A stretch of 59,022 bases of DNA, counting the filler, from Ionaspis alba (lineage: Eukaryota), in the NCBI GenBank assembly GCA_964255285.1. It is 7 parts of 7 records of this genome, joined end to end, with 100 filler letters (N's around TTAATTAATTAA, not from the genome) between each part and the next. Parts side by side here need not be neighbours in the genome. Positions count along the whole stretch, not along the records: positions 25,412 to 33,754 come from CAXUUL010000753.1; 6 more parts are not named here. The stretch is one strand, 5' to 3'. Made by a program: the position numbers and the translations under genes. This document shows positions 8,377 through 51,082 of the stretch, one piece after another; position 1 is the first letter of the stretch, and the number at the start of each line of letters is the position of its first letter. The notes beneath the pieces were generated by a model. The model saw only the letters and a list, made by a program, of their open reading frames with translations. It was not told the origin of the DNA and did not search any database.

Positions 8377-8476
8377 NNNNNNNNNNNNNNNNNNNNNNNN
8401 NNNNNNNNNNNNNNNNNNNNTTAATTAATTAANNNNNNNNNNNNNNNNNNNNNNNNNNNNNNNNNNNNNNNNNNNN
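8377..8476. other. Artificial contig-join spacer N44-TTAATTAATTAA-N44 (stop codons in all six frames)
   Basis: Identical 100-nt construct also at 16852-16951, 25312-25411, 33755-33854, 42196-42295 and 50615-50714. Confidence 0.97.
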
Positions 8477-12438: not shown

Positions 12439-12538
12439 NNNNNNNNNNNNNNNNNNNNNNNNNNNNNNNNNNNNNNNNNNNNNNNNNNNNNNNNNNNNNN
12501 NNNNNNNNNNNNNNNNNNNNNNNNNNNNNNNNNNNNNN
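12439..12538. other. Plain N100 scaffold gap (second example at 19024-19123); truncates the aconitase 3' end
   Basis: 100 N without the TTAA linker. Confidence 0.95.
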
Positions 12539-16270: not shown

Positions 16271-17117
16271 ATTGAATGCTCGAAATCGTTGGTCTGGAAT
16301 TGTCGTTCGTGCAAAGGAATTTCCGGAGGAAGGAGAATTAAGAACGAAATGTACACGTGATCAAAAGTAGAAGCGATGCTAAAGAGCGACTGTGGTCAAT
16401 GGAAATCAAAGAATGAGAAAGAAAAGAGTGTGGTTGGTCGTGCTGGCCGTTTGTTTGCAGTTGTGTTAGGAGGAAGTTGCAACTGTGGTTTGGAAACCTC
16501 AGGGGAAACACAGACGCGCTAGTAGGAGCCAGTCTATAATTAGTGTAGCGGCCGTTTGATCACCCAATTATTCTGGAGTTAGCCTCTACAGGCCGAGCAT
16601 TATTGGCACAATGAATCCAAGAAGGCAGGGCTCTTTTAGGTACCGATACGCTATTGCAAGCCCCTATCTCACCGGGCAGAAGCCCCCTGGAATTCGATAC
16701 CTCGCTAACCGTGCTAATTCTGCTTGGCAACGATTCCTGTCCACGCGCCTCGCCAGTGATAGTATCAATCCTTCTGGGAATGTCCTCGATACTGTTAAAT
16801 CTAGACGGCGTTTGGAGGTTTATTAAAGGCATCCAAAGCAGCATTTGCTAANNNNNNNNNNNNNNNNNNNNNNNNNNNNNNNNNNNNNNNNNNNNTTAAT
16901 TAATTAANNNNNNNNNNNNNNNNNNNNNNNNNNNNNNNNNNNNNNNNNNNNCGCAAAACGCCTTTCAATCAAGCAGAAGAGTTGAATATCTAGACTGTTC
17001 TAACTCAGCTAGTAAGACGCATTCCTTCCCATTGATACCTACTTCATTGGCCCCTACGTCCCAAATGACCCGTGAACTCCGTGTGCCTGGCGTGAAAACA
17101 CCACTATGAACCTCTGT

Positions 17118-19019: not shown

Positions 19020-19147
19020 AACGNNNNNNNNNNNNNNNNNNNNNNNNNNNNNNNNNNNNNNNNNNNNNNNNNNNNNNNNNNNNNNNNNNNNNNNNNNNNN
19101 NNNNNNNNNNNNNNNNNNNNNNNCAGTAGTCGCAGTCGCATACGCAT

Positions 19148-25200: not shown

Positions 25201-25411
25201 TGTGGTGGTTTCTCTCCCACTATTGGTGGAAGTAGCTGCAGAAATGCTGAAGGCTGCAAGATAATGCAAGATCCTAACGCCGGAGATAGGGTTTTGGAGC
25301 TATGACCACCANNNNNNNNNNNNNNNNNNNNNNNNNNNNNNNNNNNNNNNNNNNNTTAATTAATTAANNNNNNNNNNNNNNNNNNNNNNNNNNNNNNNNN
25401 NNNNNNNNNNN

Positions 25412-25737
25412 GCGGGGTTGAGGGGGGAGTCGCCGGTGGCTTCGAAGGGGTTGGTGGTGGTGGTGTCGCCGCTGATGCTGCTGGTGCGGGCGGTAGCGGA
25501 GAAGGTGGATTTTTCGGTGAGGGTGCGGGCTAGTTGGTGGATTTGATTGGAGTCCCGCGTGCTGATTTGGCGTTCGCGGCTATAGGGTGTGTCTTCGGGG
25601 GTCTTTTCGAGGGACTCGGGAGTTGCTGTTCCGGTGTCGGTGCTTTCTTCGGGGACGATGCCTTGTCTTGGGCTTGGGGCTCCAGCGTTGCGGGCTGTGC
25701 GGTCGTAGTTGACGGAGACGTTGCCGACGAGAGACAT
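25412..25737 (-). CDS. N-terminal fragment of a PDR-type ABC multidrug transporter, truncated by contig end
   Basis: IHQLARTLT...NPF...DSPLNP resembles the conserved pre-NBD N-terminus of fungal ABCG/PDR transporters; no ATP-binding domain is visible. Confidence 0.65.
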
Positions 25738-27306
25738 CTTGGATGTTCGGAAGGGAAGGTAGTAAGGTTAGGGAAGACCGTGTGTGCTATAGACAGGAGA
25801 AATCAGTAGTTGGTGAAGTGGTACATTCTCAACAAGCTAGCTCTCATGTATAGAGTATCTCGTGAGCTGTTTACTCGGGAAGTCGGGAACGATCACTCAA
25901 TTGAAAGAACAGTCAAGCTGAAGGGAAAGAGATGGAAGAGTTTAGTTTTTCAGTTCATTGAACTACCACCTAGCAATAACATCCCTAGACCCACGCCTAG
26001 GCCGATACTGACAAGCTGACATGACCATAATGCGGTCACTCCCGCCTGCACAACATTTACTCAATCAAACACCCAAGTGCATCGGTAAAACAACCTCCGA
26101 TACCACCGGATGCAGAAATTCGCGGATGACGATGCATAAAAATGCTTGGCAGGCGTTCGGTAAGTAAGCTGATAGCTGGAACCAGTGAAGCCCCTGTCCT
26201 TCTACTCTAGATGAGACCTCGTTTCGTGGGGATTGGCGTTTTTCTGCATAGTGAAGAGTTGGGGGTCTACGCCGCAGCATGGGACGGCAGCATGAGTAAG
26301 CCGATTACTTGTGATCCTTAAGCAACGAGAATTGCGTGTCGCTGCGGTGTCTGGCTCGCATGCCGAAGGCAGCGGGTAAGAGAATAGAGAACCGGTATTA
26401 TTCCGGATCGGATGAGCTGATCTAATGCACCCGGAACCGCCACGCGGCTTGGAGTAAAGTCCGATATGTCGGTATGCAGGCTACATGGACCACATACAGG
26501 ATAAGAATATTAATAAGCGTCCATAGCTACAGTATATTTTCAGAAGAAGATGAGATGAAGACCCGAAATGGGGCCGTCGGCTCCAAGTGGTTAAGGTTTG
26601 TGCAATTTATGCATGATGCCGGAGTGGCGGGTGCGAATTGATTGTGGCCGAGCATAATTAGCAGTATTACTAGCTAATCATGCCTATGAAGCGGCTAATT
26701 TTCGAGGTTTGAATCTTAAAAAGTTAGAAAGGAATATTCGGACAAAAAGGTTCAAGTAGATATAAGTATCAAGTAGCGATGAAGAGCCAGGTCGTCATGA
26801 AAATTCGTGCATCATACTGTCGAGAATCTGCATTGTTGTGCTAATGCTATACAACCATCTCATCATCTCGGGTAATCCTTCCACTTCCTGTCTGAGGCTT
26901 CCTATCAGGCTTGTTGTAAGGCTAACTGCCAAAGTCTCTCGTACCAATAATGAAACCTCTATGCGGAGCGCTGAGGCTTTCTCTGCGACGATTTTTTGAT
27001 ATCACCGGCTTGGAAAGGCACTTCCTATATTAGAAGGGTGCTCATGTTGGTTCCTAGATGCGCATTTTGCTTGCTTTTACAGCGTATATTGAACACTACC
27101 TTGGATGTACAACGACAGACCTTTTGATCCACCTTATATGGCATGTTCTTATATGAGCTCTTTCGTCAAATGTTTCTTGACATTAACATCATGTCATTGA
27201 TTCTTGTGCACTGATTGCGGTGCATTCTACTTGTACAAATGATGAAGTCTATTCCGCCGCGCCTTTCCCTTCCTCATTTCCAACATAAACGCTATCATAT
27301 ACAAAG

Positions 27307-29448
27307 ATGGCAAACTACGCCCAAAACCTGCCCATCGAGCTCATCCGCGAGATAGTCAACTACATCGACCCCTCACACATCTACAACGCCACCACCATTT
27401 GTCGCCTCTGGCACGAAGCAACTAAGGACATCGTATACGCAAAGCTCAAAGACCTAGACACCAATTTTGCCATTCATCACCGTAACGGTCAGGAATATGC
27501 CGAGCGCCTGATAATCGAGGCTCGGCATGCGAAGACCTTGGCTGGGAAATGGCGTTTCGTGGTCTCCAGGCAACTGTCGTGGTTTCAGGCAGCGCACCAC
27601 ACAGTTCATTGCGTTGTGGGGAGTCCTTCACAAGACGGTGCCAGGTACACCGCTTCCAAGATCTTTGCATCTACAGATGGGCGAGTGTTGCTCCGAAGCA
27701 GTGAGCGAGAAGGCCGATTGAAAAATGAACTATTCGCAACCGATGATCTTCGATCAGTCGTACAGATCTCACCCCGGAACTTCTACCGACGCCGTTTAGC
27801 CATCTTTGCTCGTCGTCCAGATATCAGCTACCAGGGTTTCGAAGTCATCGCCGAAGACCTTAGACCCTCGTACCTTCTAACCTTGCCTTCGACTTCCCGC
27901 CTGGTGGACGTTTCTTTCATATCAAGCGTCGAGGGGACAGTCCCCGTCCCCGGTGATGCTACGCGTGCGAGATTGGAGAAGTCCGAACGGCCACTTCATG
28001 GCTCCGCAAAGGATCTGTACACGCCGATATTCGATATTGCCATGTTAGCAGCTGATAGACAAGTCATGATATCGACCGTCATTTTGAAGTACTCGCGTTC
28101 GATGCGACGTGCCCTACGCACCTTTTCTAGTCGCTTGGGGCAATCCGTTGTCATACCATATGTGAATATGTGGAAGCGACTTTCCGAAGGTGTAAGACAC
28201 TGGGATGGAAGGTACAGCGAGTTGACCAGATGTGACAGTTTTGTGTACAGCTGGTTCACGAAAGCCCCCGGCACCGCGGTGGATGTATGTCGCGGGAGGT
28301 CTGAGCCAACTGCTATCTTGCTAAATGCTACGCAATCCGTCACATTGGTAGCTTGCCGCGAAGGTATCGAAATCCTCTTCCTGTCATTCGATGGTGGCTG
28401 GCCAGGCGAGAGCTTGGGCAAAGCCGGCAGGAGGTGGGTCGGCTTCGACAATCCAGGACCCGAAAAGATCATCGCCATGGTCCACTGCAGACCAGGAGCG
28501 ATATTAATCACCCGAGCATCCACAGCTACGGAGAGCTCCTCCAACCCTACGGAACGATCCACCGGACTCCTGAACTTCCCACTTGCCACATGGCAGCTCG
28601 TTCTGAAAGAACCACTCTCGGATCCTTTCTTCAGCTATCAATACGACACCGTCCCCTACACCGCCGAATTCACCTCGCTTCATGAACCAGAAACCTGCAT
28701 CTCCCAATGGCTCGAGTCGCTGACCTTGGTCGCACACACTCAACACGAATTCATCGCCTGGGATCCATGGGGCGAAGTCGTCAAAATGGTGTCAATCCGA
28801 CTGGGTGAATTCTCAAAAGGCCGTGCCTACAACATCATGCAGCTCGAAAAAGTGATTTCCGATCTCGCGACTCCGAAACCTGTAGCACTCGCGGGAACTG
28901 TATATCACTCTGAACGACAATGGACGTCCTTTGATTGCTATGAGCTCAAAAGCAGCTCCTACATCGCCGTAGCGGCATACCGCATTGCACCACTATCTGT
29001 CCTTGGGGTGATGCGGACGATTCATAATGAATTAGCACTGGATACCGCTGCCAACGCGGGCATTGTCGAGGATATCTACCTCGCCGAGTATCAAGGCAAA
29101 GCCGTGACCGAGATCATCGACAATGGTCATGGTGTCACTGTCGAACCCCACTACATCATATCCATTCGCTCGATGAAGGGTATTGCGTTCCTGCGACTCG
29201 ATAACCGGAAATCGAACAAGCGAGCAGGTATCAAGAAATATAAGGGAGCAGATGTCGACTTTTTGGTGCTCGTTATCGGTTTGCACGGTGGGAATGAGGT
29301 TATTGTTAAGTACTTGGTCAAAGCTATCAGGCCGGCGCTCTGTGGAGGAAAGAAAGAGGTTTGGAGGGTTAAGGGGGAGACGATGATTAGAGATGGGGAT
29401 AGGAACCCACCGATCACATGGAGGTATAATGATTATAGGGCTTGGTGA
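27307..29448 (+). CDS. F-box protein with unassigned ~650-aa C-terminal region, intronless
   Basis: 713-aa ORF; NLPIELIREIVNYI...ATTICRLWHEA F-box motif. Confidence 0.75.
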   Translation: MANYAQNLPIELIREIVNYIDPSHIYNATTICRLWHEATKDIVYAKLKDLDTNFAIHHRNGQEYAERLIIEARHAKTLAGKWRFVVSRQLSWFQAAHHTVHCVVGSPSQDGARYTASKIFASTDGRVLLRSSEREGRLKNELFATDDLRSVVQISPRNFYRRRLAIFARRPDISYQGFEVIAEDLRPSYLLTLPSTSRLVDVSFISSVEGTVPVPGDATRARLEKSERPLHGSAKDLYTPIFDIAMLAADRQVMISTVILKYSRSMRRALRTFSSRLGQSVVIPYVNMWKRLSEGVRHWDGRYSELTRCDSFVYSWFTKAPGTAVDVCRGRSEPTAILLNATQSVTLVACREGIEILFLSFDGGWPGESLGKAGRRWVGFDNPGPEKIIAMVHCRPGAILITRASTATESSSNPTERSTGLLNFPLATWQLVLKEPLSDPFFSYQYDTVPYTAEFTSLHEPETCISQWLESLTLVAHTQHEFIAWDPWGEVVKMVSIRLGEFSKGRAYNIMQLEKVISDLATPKPVALAGTVYHSERQWTSFDCYELKSSSYIAVAAYRIAPLSVLGVMRTIHNELALDTAANAGIVEDIYLAEYQGKAVTEIIDNGHGVTVEPHYIISIRSMKGIAFLRLDNRKSNKRAGIKKYKGADVDFLVLVIGLHGGNEVIVKYLVKAIRPALCGGKKEVWRVKGETMIRDGDRNPPITWRYNDYRAW

Positions 29449-29992
29449 GGTAACAAGAGGCTGGTGAGAGCGACGTATCGGACTCGAAATTTCCTGGAGG
29501 ACTTCAAGATTGGACTATGTTCTTACGTTGGAGCTGCCATTGAGACCGAGCGCAACCGGTGACCATAGTGGGAGCCTATCGTCAATACTCGAAAAGTTAT
29601 CGAACGGTGCGTAGTAAAAGACACTGTCTCGAGATATGCACCCTGCTTGGATTCAAGTCGGGTGGACAGAAATCGTTGCCGAGCGTAATATAATTAGCGA
29701 GGTATTGAGTCTACGGGGCTCCCGTCAGGTGAGACAGGTGCTTTCAATAGAGGATGAGTTCCCCAGGGCCTCGCCTTCTTGGTATCGTGCTCGGCAACGA
29801 TTTCTGTGCACCCGCATCGTCCAGGCCGCTGGGCACGCTTAGATCTTGGCGGGCATAACGGGCACGACGTCATTACGGATATTTTATGGCCCCACTAACA
29901 GCGATTTGTGTCTTTCAACAACAACTCCGATTGTAATTCCTGAACGGGATCATCCAAAAACACTAGATCTTCTACTATCATCTGTCAGAATT

Positions 29993-30538
29993 ATGTCGGG
30001 AACTTCATCCGTGGGCCAAGGCTCTGTCTACGAGGCCGGTGACCAGCGCAATGTTCCGCAGTCAGAAATTAAAGACGCGGAGAGGTACAATGAGGGGAAA
30101 GAGCATTCGCACAAGAGCACTGACTCTAGTACGTATTGCTACAGCCGATATCCCACCTTGCTGACTTGGTCACACGTTTTTGGGAACATTGACTTACAAT
30201 ACTACAGAGGACGAGCGCTCCATCGCCAATCGTCTAGCCAATGAAGAGGTAGCACCTTCTCCTCCTGTCCTCTTCACTCAACAAACAACACTGACGAAAT
30301 TTCATTGCCAGAAAAAGAAGGACAAAGACGAGGACAGTTTAGAGACCAAGCAATCGAAGAAGGATCCTACACTACCGGTGAGTCTCGCACTTGAGCGTGC
30401 TTTAGCAGGCTTTGTGACAACGGGCTGACGGCGTGGCAGGCACGCAGTCACGGAAATGAGCCTTCGAAAGGTGCGAAGATCGATGCTGAGATCCAGGCCG
30501 AGGAGGAGGAGGAGCTGAGGAAGAAGGGGAAGAAGTGA
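29993..30538 (+). CDS. Small highly hydrophilic conserved fungal protein (~113 aa, 4 exons)
   Basis: Splices to MSGTSSVGQGSVYEAGDQRN...DSKDERSIANRLANEE...KDPTLPARSHGNEPSKGAKIDAEIQAEEEEELRKKGKK; three canonical introns. Confidence 0.8.
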
Positions 30539-30760
30539 GCGGGATGTGGAAGCCATGAATATGGATCACATAAATCTTGGCTCATTGGCTGCACTGAACG
30601 GCATTCTGTGTGAAAGCATTGAGCTTGCGATAAGGGTCATTTAGATGCAGCTAGTGGAATGCAGAACCAGGCTTCCCCGAAGAAGGATCCATCGAGTCGC
30701 GTGACCTTTTGAAGAAGTTTGTCCATCGATATAAAATCTTCAGAGACCGGGGGCGCTAGT

Positions 30761-31540
30761 TCAGTGTACTTGTTCACGTGAATTCGGTTGAGCGATCTTG
30801 CCAGAACGAATCAAGACTCTCAATTCCTGTAGCGGCGGAATACTTTCAAGCATTCCTTCGGCCAACCTGTCCCACAGAATACCACAAGTAGGCTTCTTAG
30901 CCGCAGTCACCTCAATGATGGTGGTGGGAGTAACGACGAGATCACAAACAGTATCGAACTCTTCAGGTACCAATTCCTCTTCTAGCACCTGGAAATCATG
31001 GACAAAAGCTACCGTCTTTGTCTCCAATGTGACAGTGCCAAGCGTGAAGAGCATGCCCCATTCCAGATCAAAGAATCCATGGCCCTTTCCAAAGCGGACA
31101 CCTTTGTGATTGATTGCTCCAGTGCCTGTCACCATCAGATCCACACGGATGCCCGATCTTTTTATTTCAATGAGGTCCAGCGGACGGGCAGACTTCTCCA
31201 TACCATCTAGTGTAGAGGCATATTCGAATTTCGAAGGATGGATGTCGTCAGGGTCAAGCATCCAGAAGCCTCTCCTGATAGCATACGTGGTCATAAGTAT
31301 TTTCTTTCCATCCTGAAGAGATCTCAGTCGCAAATTCTCGAGGCAATTGTCAGGCGTGATGAAGATGGTCTGCGCAGATTTATAGCATTCCAGCACCGTA
31401 AGTCTTTGTGTAGCCTCCTCAGAACCTGAGAAATCGGCGATGAACTCGCCGAAGTCGTAGTGGAACCGCGAGTCTGGATATGCGACTTTTCGCAGTTCCG
31501 ACCAGACCTTCTCACGGACAGTAGACTTGTGGTCCTCCAT
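30761..31540 (-). CDS. 5-formyltetrahydrofolate cyclo-ligase paralog, COG0212/MTHFSD type, intronless (259 aa)
   Basis: REKVW, IADFSGS, FITPDN, VDLMVTG, GVRFGKGHGFFDLEWGML, VHDFQV, DLVVTPT, GILW, IPPLQEL parallel the MTHFSD/COG0212 motifs rather than canonical Fau1. Confidence 0.85.
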   Translation of the reverse strand: MEDHKSTVREKVWSELRKVAYPDSRFHYDFGEFIADFSGSEEATQRLTVLECYKSAQTIFITPDNCLENLRLRSLQDGKKILMTTYAIRRGFWMLDPDDIHPSKFEYASTLDGMEKSARPLDLIEIKRSGIRVDLMVTGTGAINHKGVRFGKGHGFFDLEWGMLFTLGTVTLETKTVAFVHDFQVLEEELVPEEFDTVCDLVVTPTTIIEVTAAKKPTCGILWDRLAEGMLESIPPLQELRVLIRSGKIAQPNSREQVH

Positions 31541-31851
31541 GCTGGATGTACATCGAATAAAAATCCATCCTGTACGACGACATACCAGGGTCTTGCTTCC
31601 TCGGCATTGCTCAAGTCGGAGGAAAATGCCGTTGAAGATCCCTTTAGCGCGGCTCCAACCGGAATGCTTATCACGCCCTAAACCCAATGCACAACTTCCG
31701 AACCTCCACCTCCCTATCAATCCACCGCACTACAAGTCCCTAGCCGTTTTCTCGTGCTACAATACAAAAATCCTAGCAAACACGATGGCCTCTCCAATCC
31801 CTCCCTCGTCGCCAGCTCCTCCGCTTCCCCTCCCATCCTCACCACCTTACC

Positions 31852-33630
31852 ATGGCCTCCATCACAGACTCCGCCTCCGACGACAAACACCCCCACAACG
31901 CCTCGGATGAAGGGAAGAAGCGAGAAGCAGAATGGCGACCTGCCAGCCGCGATGACTCGGCGTTGGCAATCCTGCAGCATATCAAGCAGGTGGATCAGCA
32001 CCATCCCGTGCATTGGCCGAGCTGGAAGAAGTGGTATATCGTCAGCGCGTACTGCTTGCTGCAGATTTTCGTGACCTTGACCTCGACGTCGTATGTCTCG
32101 GTGGAGTTCTTGATCGCGGAGCAGTTGGGAGGAAGTCAGCAAGTCATTACGCTGGGGCAGTCGTTGTTTATTGTGGGGAATGCGGTTGGGCCTGCGGTGC
32201 TGGGGCCGTTGTCGTGAGTGAGATGATGTGGAAAGAATGCGGGAGTTGTGTCTGACGGAATCTAGTGATATTGGAGGGCGGAAATGGGTTTATGTGGGCT
32301 CGATTTTGATGTATGCAATCTTGAATATTGTACGACCATGACGACCATTCAATCTTGTCCACAGGAAGCTTACAAGTGTTAGGGCTCTGCGAAAGCGCTC
32401 AATCTCCCTATGCTCATCATCTTCCAATTCCTCTGCGGCGCGGCAGGCAGCACAGCGCTCTCCAACGTCGCCGGCACAATCGCGGACCTCTTCGGCTCGT
32501 CCGATATCTCGGGCCAGGCAATGGCGCTCTTCGTGTGGTCCGCGAACGTGGGGCCTAGCATTGGAAGTCCTATCGGCGAGCTGATTGCCGACAACGAGAA
32601 TATGGGGCTTCCTTGGGTCTTCTGGATCAAGTGAGACTGCTAGATCCTGTTTTTTTTCTAGACGTGGAAGGCTGACCGCCCACTCCCGCAGTGTCATCAT
32701 CGGCGCCATCTTCGCAGCTGCCATGTGCTTCATCCCCGAAACCCTACCTCGAATCGTGATTGCCCGCGAAGCCCGAAAGACGCACGATCTCAATCCCGAC
32801 GAAATCGTCATTATGGAGTCGAAAGTCAATGTCCTGCATCAGATCCGATTCATCACGACTATGGCGCTGAAAATCATGGTCACCGAGCCCATTGTCGCGT
32901 TCCTGGCCGTCTACAACGGGTTTGCCTACGGTCTGCTGTTCCTGTACCTGGATGGAGTGTTCGCGGTCTTCGTCGTCAATAATGGTCTTAGCTACCTGAG
33001 TGCTGATCTCACGTACCTCAATTTTGTGGTTGGCGTTACGATTATGTTCCTCTTTATGCCGGTCCAGACCTACCTGTTCAAGCGGGATCGGCTGAAGAGA
33101 GGTGGGCAAGGACGGCCGGAAGCCAGGTTCTTGACGTCGCTGGTTACGGTCTGGGGATTCCCGCTGTCGCTTTTCTGGTTCGCGTTCACGTCCGATGGGA
33201 ATACTTCGTTCTGGTCGCCGGTTGTGGCGGGTGCTGTGCTGGGGTTTTCGGATCCGTTGCTGTATTTGAGCATGTTGAATTACATCACTGGTGAGTATTG
33301 ATGTACCACACCAGAACGTTCAAGTGCTGATAGTTGGCCCCAAATAGATGCCTACCCAAACGTTGCGGCGTCAGCGATCGCCGCATTCTTGATCCCTTCG
33401 TTTGTCGTGGCCGCGGCTTTCGCACATATCGGTGAGCTACGATCATCACTGATTATAGCTTTGGGAAGACTAATATACAAACAGGTATTGTCATGTTCGC
33501 CAATATGACCAGCACATGGGCATTCGCCACTTTGGCGTTCATCTCTCTACCGCTTGTCGCTCTTGTCTACGTACTCTATTTCTTCGGACCTGCGATTAGG
33601 AGGAGGTCAAAGCTTGCTAGTACATTCTAG
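31852..33630 (+). CDS. MFS DHA1-family transporter, Bsu1-like (vitamin B6/pyrimidine uptake-like), 6 exons
   Basis: HPVHWPSWKKW, GPLSDIGGRK, GTIADLF, FIPETL, PEARFL, YITDAYP, RRSKLA; five canonical introns. The Bsu1-like subfamily call is from recalled similarity and is unverified. Confidence 0.85.
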
Positions 33631-33854
33631 ATTAGATATCACGTTTCTCCGCATTGTTTGGAGGTTTGAGCATATTGATACAACAGATTCCTATTCCAGC
33701 AGTCATCTAAAGAGCATACACTTGGACTTCATGGTTTGAAGCTTGATAGCTCATNNNNNNNNNNNNNNNNNNNNNNNNNNNNNNNNNNNNNNNNNNNNTT
33801 AATTAATTAANNNNNNNNNNNNNNNNNNNNNNNNNNNNNNNNNNNNNNNNNNNN

Positions 33855-40954: not shown

Positions 40955-42545
40955 TGAGTCCTCGGGTATCTCTCGATAAATCTCCTCCCCACAACCACGT
41001 CGGGATCAACAAGCATCTATCTACACACAACCAACCAACCCATCACGACTGCTAGGAATTACGACCACCACTTTTTTCATATTCACAAGCGAGGAAAGCA
41101 TACATCAGGCATTTGTTTGCACGAGGTCGTTTCTTTGCATTTCACGATGCATTTTATTCTCTTTGTATGCGGGCGGGAGGAATCATTTCACTTCACACCA
41201 AAAACAACATCCGCGGCTAGGCAGAGAGACAGACGGGCAGGGCAGGGGCATTCACATAGCACGCGTGGGAAAGCGGGACACATTCTCCTTGGTTCAGTAT
41301 CGTGCTTTTTACTTTTTGTTGTGGCTGGGATGCGGCGAGCATTTTTGTGTGCTGCGTGCGTGCGTGCGTTGATGCATTGGCGTGTGTGGTTGGTTTGTTT
41401 TTTTGCTTTTGTTTGGGTGAGCCAGCGGTGGGTTGGTTTGCTGCGGTGGGGATTAGGAAAATTGGACAGGGAAGGGAAGAAGTGAGCAGGAGGGAGGGAG
41501 GGGAGGGAGTGAGGAGGAGGGCTCCGGATTGAGATTTCTTCTTAGGGTCGAATGAGGAAGCACTCGTGGGAGTGTGGGGTTTAATGGATGAATTGAACTG
41601 GGTGGGATGAATAGTACGAATGTGGTACTTGATGTGAATCATTGTGATACGTGTGCAATGGTTGGGATTCGATGAAATGCTAATGGTGTTCCTGTTGTAA
41701 AAGGATTGAGGTGTGAAGGACGCTTCGATTGTAAATGACTCCTGAGTACGCCTTCCATATCCCATTGCAGCAGGAAGGCTGGCCTCCATTACACACGGGA
41801 ACTCCTACCCGTTTGCTATTCTAGAAAGAAAATCGTTATTCGTGATCCAAAACCCTGCTCCCTATCCCACGGTCCTCTTCGACAACTTCCGTCCTTCATC
41901 CAATGACGATCAGCCCTCCCGTTTACTTTCCTCTGGCTCCAAGTGAACGAGCTCTGTCTCCCGTCCTTGTCTACTGATCTCTGACTTCCACGGCTAGGTT
42001 GTACTGGCTGACATGCTCCAGTCCCGAATGATGGAACTGAAAAGCCAACAAAGGTATTGATATCCTGTCTGCCGGTAGTCTCGGACACGTCCTGTTGATC
42101 TTCACATAGTATAGCGGAAGGGGATCCCTCATTCTATCAAGGCATTCGGCACGGTGGCATCTTCGTAGTCGGATGTAGAGGAACTGGTCGCCGACNNNNN
42201 NNNNNNNNNNNNNNNNNNNNNNNNNNNNNNNNNNNNNNNTTAATTAATTAANNNNNNNNNNNNNNNNNNNNNNNNNNNNNNNNNNNNNNNNNNNNTCATT
42301 TCATTCTCTTCTCTTCCAAGAGACGTCACGATCAATCAGCCAGAGCCAAATATAGAGAAATCAAGACGGCAACGCTCCACCGAAAGAGTGAAGTAGGCAG
42401 TCATCCGACAGGCCTTTAGATTGCACCCTTATAGTTACCCCTTGAAAAGCGAAACGGCCTTAATTCATCAGGGAGAATATGAACGTACATAGAAGAGAGC
42501 GTATCGAGCCTTTATATGAATCTCGTGTCCAGTTGTATAGAAAAT

Positions 42546-50614: not shown

Positions 50615-51082
50615 NNNNNNNNNNNNNNNNNNNNNNNNNNNNNNNNNNNNNNNNNNNNTTAATTAATTAANNNNNNNNNNNNNNNNNNNNNNNNNNNNNN
50701 NNNNNNNNNNNNNNGACTCGTTGTGGTCTGTCGAGTATAACGTTGAAGGTGGAGGGAAGAAGTGAGAGACTCATCTAAGAAAGTATTGTATCTAGTAGAT
50801 GTGATTTGCAATTTGTGTCAAGCGAACGAGAGCGCATATACCCTTTGCATGGTGCGTGTAGATTATTGTACAGAAGCAAATAATTTCATCAATGAATTCA
50901 AGCCATCTTGGTTTATACTTCTGTTAACGCTCGTGACATCCTATATCCGAGGAGTCAATGCTGTATCCCAAACCTCAAGCGTTACAAGCGAGCGGTAATA
51001 GCGACTTGTGCCTAACAATATCATTTCGTAGGGTTTTGCCAGATCTGATCTAGCCGGACACTTTAGCATCACGTGCATACTC

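Follow-up and report, generated by a model that had tools for sequence, protein, structure and literature searches.

The window analysed here, 59,022 nucleotides of the Ionaspis alba assembly GCA_964255285.1, joins seven contigs, one of which (25412–33754; 8,343 bp) carries, head to head, the gene of a predicted COG0212/MTHFSD-type enzyme, a paralog of 5-formyltetrahydrofolate cyclo-ligase (5-FCL), and the gene of a transporter of the major facilitator superfamily (MFS). Since the pieces are separate contigs, genes on different pieces are not genomic neighbours, and only this contig provides genomic context for the pair. Both genes lie wholly on it and diverge from each other. The enzyme gene (30761–31540, minus strand) consists of one exon that encodes 259 amino acids and a stop codon. 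The MFS gene (31852–33630, plus strand) runs from an ATG at 31852 to a stop codon ending at 33630 and encodes 500 amino acids. Its gene model, derived from five introns of 52–61 nt that are all of the GT..AG type, comprises six plus-strand exons at 31852–32213, 32266–32329, 32383–32630, 32692–33290 (exon 4, the largest), 33348–33431 and 33485–33630, the last including the stop codon.

The original prediction placed the two start codons about 310 bp apart on one contig. Indeed, exactly 311 bases (31541–31851) separate them, which presumably hold a shared divergent promoter and the two 5′ untranslated regions. A 1,129-nt contig, obtained by independent assembly of a public run, spans 31227–32355 with 3 differences to the window and bridges the 5′ end of the enzyme gene, the spacer and MFS exons 1 and 2. 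The head-to-head arrangement is thus not an assembly artefact. In the same run, the region 30700–33700 is represented by two sequence variants at depths of ~90 and ~37, with many mostly synonymous-looking differences, which may be two haplotypes or two related strains.

Family, fold and origin of the enzyme

The enzyme matches the Pfam family PF01812 (5-FTHF_cyc-lig) with 52.9 bits (cut-off 27) over profile positions 1–186 of 186. It stays below the equivalog models of canonical 5-FCLs (25.7 vs 84.9 bits for TIGR02727, 23.3 vs 343 for NF007661), and the match to these models is confined to residues 132–209 (132–205 for TIGR02727). Searches of the PDB by sequence and by profile returned marginal 5-FCL matches (E 0.83 and 0.29, the latter from the profile search), and matches in the ESM Atlas were generic ‘5-formyltetrahydrofolate cyclo-ligase’ clusters only. 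An AlphaFold (AF2) model, computed from an end-to-end alignment of 36 sequences (the enzyme and 35 homologs), reached a predicted local distance difference test score (pLDDT) of 91.4. The 12 best Foldseek matches of this model are all 5-FCL/MTHFS entries (E 1e-9 to 1e-7, target TM-score 0.63–0.73, identity 16–18%), followed by eIF2B subunits and ribose-1,5-bisphosphate isomerase. The predicted fold of the enzyme is therefore that of 5-FCL/MTHFS.

The alignment has 59 invariant columns, shared by fungi, proteobacteria, cyanobacteria, a verrucomicrobial genome bin and an archaeon. Residues R149, G151, G153, G155, F157, D158 and D196 are identical in 36 of 36 sequences, with F156 and D200 conserved in at least 90%. 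The stretch R-F-G-K-G-H-G-F-F-D-x-E-W, which belongs to these conserved columns, aligns with G-x-R-x-G-x-G-x-G-Y-Y-D of the 5-FCLs 2jcb and 1wkc. The glycine-rich stretch and the downstream aspartates of 5-FCLs serve in nucleotide and Mg binding, and conservation of this stretch supports our reading that ATP-dependent chemistry would be retained. The enzyme thus resembles 5-FCL/MTHFS proteins (EC 6.3.3.2; 1ydm, 2jcb, 1sou, 3hy6, 1wkc) in predicted fold, in the R-x-G-x-G-x-G-aromatic-aromatic-D stretch and in the later aspartates. Apart from the low identity, it differs from them by being ~60–70 residues longer and by a conserved C-terminal extension (K-P-x-C-G-I-x-W ... I-P-P-L-Q-E-L).

This extension recurs in the animal protein MTHFSD. 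A profile of the family, which retrieved 2,086 clusters at E ≤ 1e-3, matches lobster, scallop and sea-urchin MTHFSD with E of ~1e-38 to 1e-39. The enzyme itself aligns end to end with the sea-urchin protein (29% identity over 246 amino acids, E 8e-34, query residues 5–241), C-terminal extension included. Together with the failed 5-FCL model, this match identifies the predicted protein as a paralog of the COG0212/MTHFSD type, its membership being established via animal MTHFSD. The same identity had been put forward in the original prediction and is borne out by PF01812 membership, the 5-FCL fold of the model, the score below the TIGR02727 cut-off and the full-length MTHFSD match. Unlike the fungal enzyme, the animal proteins that we examined are long (385–582 vs 259 amino acids), and animal MTHFSD carries an extra RNA-binding domain that is not present in the fungal protein, which is also much closer to its bacterial orthologs (46–64% identity).

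COG0212 is tabulated as ‘not a 5-FCL; involved in thiamine salvage’ in an excerpt of PMC3223725, and an excerpt of PMC4120688 describes co-expression of a COG0212 gene with THIC in plants. The former excerpt agrees with the earlier statement that COG0212 proteins are no classical 5-FCLs and are linked to thiamine salvage. Canonical folate-salvage 5-FCL (EC 6.3.3.2) was considered as the function of the enzyme and rejected, owing to this listing and to the score far below the TIGR02727 cut-off.

Where does the gene come from? The best 120 homologs of the enzyme include 25 named fungal entries (56–68% identity), from lichen-forming Lecanoromycetes, Candelariomycetes, Xylobotryomycetes and Sordariomycetes, and 9 named Hyphomicrobiales (Rhizobiales-type) bacteria (63–65%). 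In a scan of prokaryote genomes, orthologs fell into a high tier of 60–64% identity, mostly Hyphomicrobiales (Rhizobiales-type) alphaproteobacteria and Burkholderiales, and a low tier of 46–52% with many alphaproteobacteria, cyanobacteria, a verrucomicrobial bin and a Thermofilum bin. Two quick maximum-likelihood trees were computed with 52 and 47 rows, the second without L027, L039, L040, L045 and L064. In both, fungi and high-tier bacteria form one clade, with support from the Shimodaira–Hasegawa-like approximate likelihood ratio test (SH-aLRT) of 99 and 100, and the high-tier bacteria are monophyletic, likewise with 99 and 100. At the base of this fungal-proteobacterial clade stand the fungi, which may be a sister group of the high-tier bacteria or a grade around them. 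Fungal monophyly is not rejected by an approximately unbiased (AU) test (p 0.69); under this constraint, the tree is in fact 7.6 log-likelihood units better. The G+C content at third codon positions (0.53 for the enzyme gene, 0.70 for the MFS gene and 0.58 for the neighbouring open reading frame, ORF) is not decisive on origin.

Given that the fungal enzyme is closer to bacterial orthologs than to animal MTHFSD, these comparisons indicate a gene of proteobacterial type and a transfer between domains, for which one event suffices and either direction is compatible with the trees. The enzyme gene is intronless whereas the adjoining MFS gene has five introns, and the suggestion that its lack of introns goes with a bacterial origin holds to the extent that the gene is of proteobacterial type, with relatives at 60–64% identity in a shared clade.

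Members of the family also occur fused to other domains. A GntR helix-turn-helix domain precedes a COG0212-type domain in P0249, P0252, P0253, P0263, P0272, P0273 and P0294, where both domains were matched, and in P0303, P0311 and P0318, where Pfam shows GntR alone and the enzyme domain was recognised by the family profile. One of the GntR fusions also has a UTRA domain and one a 4Fe-4S domain. Judging from the GntR helix-turn-helix, these proteins are presumably bacterial, and the architecture suggests that the COG0212-type domain could act as the small-molecule sensor of a transcription factor. Further fusion partners (P0314, P0363, P0344 and P0241) are the RNA 2′-phosphotransferase Tpt1/KptA, GTP cyclohydrolase II and CCHC zinc knuckles, and one protein of 1,810 amino acids among them contains several tandem domain copies.

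The transporter and the gene neighbourhood in fungi and prokaryotes

Residues 1–500 of the MFS product align with residues 1–497 of Trapelia coarctata P0121 at 80.8% identity. Pfam MFS_1 matches an ORF piece within exon 3 (32410–32631) with E 2.5e-9, and a crude hydropathy scan of the product gives 12 peaks, some of them overlapping. With exon 4 as query, the best 120 relatives are fungal proteins of ~490–500 amino acids carrying PF07690 and PF00083, at 55–83% identity (56–83% for the full-length ones). About 17 of these 120 are named ‘vitamin b6 transporter bsu1’ by their source and two ‘polyamine transporter 3’, all names having been assigned automatically.

The transporter had previously been called Bsu1-like, and its relatives do carry that label, automatic database names being its whole basis. 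Schizosaccharomyces pombe Bsu1 (Car1) is a pyridoxine proton symporter according to an excerpt of PMC6253932, and its mRNA is repressed by thiamine according to an excerpt of PMC4153625. Bsu1 is thus an importer of a small nitrogen-heteroaromatic compound under thiamine repression, and the earlier description of it as a thiamine-repressed B6 transporter agrees with both excerpts. The I. alba protein shares with Bsu1 its type and a length of ~500 amino acids, while any further likeness comes through source names only, two of which, unlike the others, refer to polyamines. We know of no report of Bsu1 beside a COG0212 gene.

Linkage of enzyme and MFS genes in other fungi was read from locus tags and accession numbers, not from DNA, which gives no gene orientation. 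We compared 18 species for which one assembly supplied both proteins, leaving aside seven fungal enzyme entries without an MFS entry of the same assembly among the best 120. The genes are linked in 15 of the 18. They are immediate neighbours in 14, namely six Xylographa species, Pycnora, Cirrosporium, Anthostomella, Gnomoniopsis, Pseudomassariella, Pleurostoma, Whalleya and Xylariaceae FL0016, and lie two tags apart on the same contig in Trapelia. Four classes are represented among the linked species: Lecanoromycetes, Candelariomycetes, Xylobotryomycetes and Sordariomycetes. Such recurrence is far beyond chance, and the refuting case named at the outset, a pair that is unlinked in other species, is contradicted by these 15 species. 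Three gene models from the databases are probable annotation fusions (P0046, enzyme and bZIP; P0133, MFS and NAD-dependent epimerase; P0139, MFS and ~540 extra residues), and they suggest that the pair may have more neighbours in the fungi concerned.

In prokaryotes, we collected 159 loci with an ortholog of the enzyme, 79 from genomes and 80 from metagenomes. An ATP-binding cassette (ABC) importer, recognised by an NMT1-type binding protein or a fused double permease, adjoins the ortholog in 115 of the 159 loci, and in 60 of the 82 that offer at least 3.5 kb on both sides of the enzyme gene. All 11 binding proteins scanned match Pfam NMT1/THI5 (E 1e-40 to 1e-46). For the binding protein from L001, the sole one searched against solved structures, the best relative is ThiY (3ix1, E 3.4e-16), with THI5 more distant. 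The ligand of ThiY is a thiamine breakdown product, N-formyl-4-amino-5-aminomethyl-2-methylpyrimidine (FAMP). A regulator of the RpiR type (HTH_6 and SIS domains) is present in 93 of the 159 loci, and the bacterial operons as a whole have RpiR/SIS, GntR or MalT-type regulators. The enzyme gene comes first in low-tier operons and last in high-tier operons. Across L001–L079, the ABC binding proteins are ~65–73% identical between tiers, compared with ~46–52% for the enzymes; one lineage may have had its enzyme gene replaced.

Further importers emerged when ORFs adjoining the enzyme gene were scanned with Pfam in 24 loci out of a selection of 28. Of these 28, 27 had given no ThiY-type ABC match before, while the remaining one, L093, has a downstream match that had been overlooked. 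L096 has an energy-coupling factor (ECF) system of the YkoE type next to the enzyme, and L134, L135 and L159 have ECF components. The neighbour is an NCS1 permease of the cytosine/purine/thiamine type in L125, a PnrA/Bmp nucleoside-type binding protein in L092, a bacterial MFS protein in L109 and a TonB-dependent receptor in L155. A relative of the fungal MFS protein was found in none of the 159 prokaryotic loci; the metagenome scan was aimed at fungal enzyme contigs, and none of its 80 loci has a Bsu1-like MFS gene.

Genes of purine metabolism form a second group of neighbours. In 8 betaproteobacterial loci (L009, L011, L016, L018, L082, L093, L094 and L098), the enzyme gene is immediately followed by a gene for adenosine deaminase (PF00962), which in L159 is divergent to it. 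An adenine deaminase gene comes after the permease gene in L054, L063 and L079 and has a convergent orientation in L086, and a nucleoside hydrolase gene is found directly upstream of the enzyme gene in L085. Deaminase genes in or beside the operon of enzyme and ABC importer are a recurrent link to purine salvage that is not thiamine-related. ADP-ribosylglycohydrolase and inosine-uridine nucleoside hydrolase genes also occur directly upstream of the enzyme gene (L005:3185-5011, L085:2180-4974 and L096:483-1589), the former as a fusion with a PfkB kinase in L005 and L085. From these neighbours, a riboside form of the substrate may be suspected.

How do these neighbourhoods compare with known systems? 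The ‘5-FCL-like’ COG0212 paralog reportedly described by Pribat et al. in 2011 (said to be Funct Integr Genomics 11:467), with At1g76730 of Arabidopsis, is said to have prokaryotic members that cluster with thiamin-type transport genes. Such clustering is found here as well, with ThiY/NMT1-like ABC importers in 115 of the 159 loci and the YkoE-type ECF system in L096. The I. alba enzyme resembles that paralog in belonging to PF01812 while not being a canonical 5-FCL, and in having prokaryotic orthologs beside transport genes of the thiamin-precursor type. In contrast to it, the I. alba gene is fungal yet of proteobacterial type, and it stands head to head with an MFS gene. The bacterial loci are further reminiscent of the ThiXYZ/YlmB/TenA salvage of formylaminopyrimidine in Bacillus, reportedly described by Jenkins et al. 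in 2007, in that an ABC importer with a ThiY-like binding protein accompanies a converting enzyme. However, the partner is a COG0212 protein instead of an amidohydrolase or TenA, an RpiR/SIS regulator replaces the thiamine pyrophosphate (TPP) riboswitch, and the permease is a fused double domain.

The literature that we searched on COG0212, MTHFSD and 5-FCL comprises plant and prokaryote work on COG0212, its uses, and human genetics papers mentioning MTHFSD; in it we came across neither a biochemical function nor a fungal gene pair nor a transfer between domains. By that search, the locus is therefore a eukaryotic variant of the known association of COG0212 with transport genes, the fungal pairing being new.

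A proposed uptake and conversion module and its substrate

Altogether, we give slightly better than an even chance to the reading that the locus encodes a module for uptake and ATP-dependent conversion in which the transporter is interchangeable. The MFS protein, of a DHA1-type subfamily named in databases after S. pombe Bsu1, would import a small nitrogen-heteroaromatic compound, which the adjoining COG0212/MTHFSD-type enzyme would convert with ATP, by phosphoryl activation and possibly by ring closure, as 5-FCL does. On this account, the enzyme gene would have passed between bacteria and an ancestor shared by several classes of ascomycetes. Bacteria encode this enzyme together with an importer, most often a ThiY/NMT1-like ABC system under an RpiR/SIS regulator, and in fungi the neighbouring MFS protein would take the place of that importer. 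Gene structures, family assignments, adjacency in fungi and importer linkage in prokaryotes are observed; we infer transport direction, ATP use and shared regulation, as well as the substrate class, which would be a purine-derived or B6-like compound or a product of thiamine-pyrimidine breakdown.

An enzyme that stays constant while its importer varies is a pattern typical of the salvage of scavenged compounds, and the retention of the MFS gene beside the fungal enzyme gene across four classes fits the same logic, which is what leads us to a module. As prokaryotic orthologs are accompanied by at least five kinds of importer, a transporter neighbour in fungi is unlikely to be a coincidence. Hence the idea of combined uptake and conversion in the original prediction comes out strengthened by the importers next to prokaryotic orthologs, ThiY/NMT1-like ABC systems in 115 of 159 loci and ECF, NCS1 and PnrA-type systems in others.

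Several observations weigh against a module of this kind. The import direction of the MFS protein is assumed by analogy with Bsu1 and the bacterial importers, and MFS proteins of the DHA1 type are often exporters. The genes are unlinked in Agyrium rufum, Hypoxylon crocopeplum and Xylographa carneopallida (3 of 18 species), where the MFS protein listed may be a paralog. Since six of the 14 species with immediate neighbours belong to one genus, Xylographa, these are not independent cases. MFS orthologs at similar identity occur in Botryosphaeriaceae, Helotiales and Chaetothyriales, none of which has an enzyme match among the best 120, so that the transporter would also work without the enzyme. 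As to shared regulation, the two triplet pairs of the Zn2Cys6 type that had been noticed between the start codons are both present on the plus strand at the positions then given, CGG-N9-CCG at 31617–31631 and CGG-N6-CCG at 31650–31661. The regulatory meaning ascribed to them is not supported, as both occur at chance frequency. Over the whole window such pairs are not enriched over shuffled sequence, with 5 observed CGG-N6-CCG vs 10.6 +/- 2.9 in shuffles and 12 observed CGG-N9-CCG vs 10.8 +/- 3.1. Rfam, the TPP riboswitch (RF00059) included, gave 0 matches at E ≤ 1 on the contig 25412–33754, the spacer 31541–31851 among it, and 0 at the gathering score in 11 bacterial loci. COG0212 was also reportedly inactive on thiamin, its breakdown products and their phosphates in the study of Pribat et al.

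It is conceivable, although we consider it quite unlikely, that the adjacency has no pathway meaning at all. A transferred enzyme gene would then have come to lie beside a housekeeping or drug-efflux MFS gene and have been kept there by promoter architecture or slow rearrangement, or the MFS protein would export the product of the enzyme. That the MFS gene is probably more widespread than the enzyme gene, the three unlinked species, the frequency of exporters among DHA1 proteins and the fact that divergent gene pairs can persist for promoter reasons would all fit. Adjacency kept across four classes and the independent linkage of prokaryotic orthologs to at least five kinds of importer argue for the uptake and conversion module instead.

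Which compound such a module would handle is a separate matter. In favour of a thiamine-pyrimidine or B6-like substrate are the binding protein of the ThiY kind, the YkoE-type ECF system, the thiamin link of COG0212 and the Bsu1-like names. Against a simple thiamine regulon speak the lack of TPP riboswitches among the sequences searched, regulators of the sugar-phosphate type and the purine-type neighbours, which suggest a purine-derived or formamidopyrimidine substrate instead. In the strictest version of the thiamine/B6 reading, the MFS protein would be a genuine ortholog of Bsu1 and bring in B6 vitamers or thiamine pyrimidines, the enzyme would handle a thiamine-pyrimidine breakdown product, and thiamine would repress both genes through a Zn2Cys6 factor. 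Besides the naming of its MFS relatives and the ECF system of L096, this version can draw on the entry ‘involved in thiamine salvage’ (excerpt of PMC3223725), on THIC co-expression in plants (excerpt of PMC4120688) and on the thiamine repression of Bsu1 (excerpt of PMC4153625). It is further in line with the position of the bacterial binding protein nearest to ThiY and farther from THI5, ThiY being a binder of FAMP. It fits poorly with the riboswitch searches on the fungal contig and the 11 bacterial loci, with operon regulators of the RpiR/SIS, GntR or MalT type, with CGG motifs at chance frequency, with Bsu1 names that are automatic and with the reportedly negative assays on thiamin breakdown products. 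We regard it as doubtful, yet a serious candidate. The thiamine/B6 specificity that the original prediction had attributed to the pair stays a conjecture, with the purine-type neighbours in some bacteria pointing elsewhere.

The purine-derived alternative would have the transporter take up a damaged or ring-opened purine or a nucleoside-like molecule, which the enzyme would re-close or activate so that the product enters purine salvage. Adenosine deaminase directly downstream in the eight betaproteobacterial loci and divergent in L159, adenine deaminase after the permease in L054, L063 and L079 and convergent in L086, the upstream nucleoside hydrolase of L085, the PnrA-type binding protein of L092 and the NCS1 cytosine/purine permease of L125 point in this direction, and 5-FCL chemistry would suit formamidopyrimidines. 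However, such neighbours occur in only ~15 of the 159 loci, all of them prokaryotic and none fungal, and ThiY-type binding proteins are not known nucleoside binders; we thus hold purine salvage to be improbable.

The two substrate classes could meet in one chemistry. By analogy with 5-FCL, in which an ATP-activated formamide is closed onto a neighbouring amine, the reaction would fit formamidopyrimidines of either kind. As a long shot, COG0212/MTHFSD proteins might be ATP-dependent ‘formamidopyrimidine cyclo-ligases’ that activate a formamide for ring closure by the neighbouring amine. Their substrates would be scavenged ring-opened bases, such as formamidopyrimidine-adenine (FAPy-adenine), yielding adenine, or the thiamine-derived formylaminopyrimidine. 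Such an activity would account for the interchangeable importers (ThiY-type ABC, YkoE-type ECF, NCS1, PnrA-type and fungal MFS), for adenine or adenosine deaminase after the enzyme in some operons, for GntR fusions as possible ligand sensors and for the retention of a transferred fungal copy beside a transporter of nitrogen-heteroaromatic compounds.

The COG0212/MTHFSD family spans bacteria to humans, with no substrate given in the literature searched. If a transporter stays beside the enzyme even after the crossing between bacteria and fungi, the key question becomes what these transporters carry. The two-gene fungal module and the five-gene bacterial operon with its soluble ThiY-like binding protein offer experimental handles on this, and the substrate of the family may be more directly testable through this locus. 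Furthermore, the locus would be a clean case of gene transfer between domains, followed by functional re-wiring to a transporter of the host.

Layout of the window

The seven contigs of the window measure ~8.3–8.4 kb each and are joined by N44-TTAATTAATTAA-N44 spacers at 8377–8476, 16852–16951, 25312–25411, 33755–33854, 42196–42295 and 50615–50714. Two gaps of 100 N lie at 12439–12538 and 19024–19123. On the contig of the gene pair, the sole other recognisable feature is a long ORF at 27289–29445 with a weak F-box-like match.

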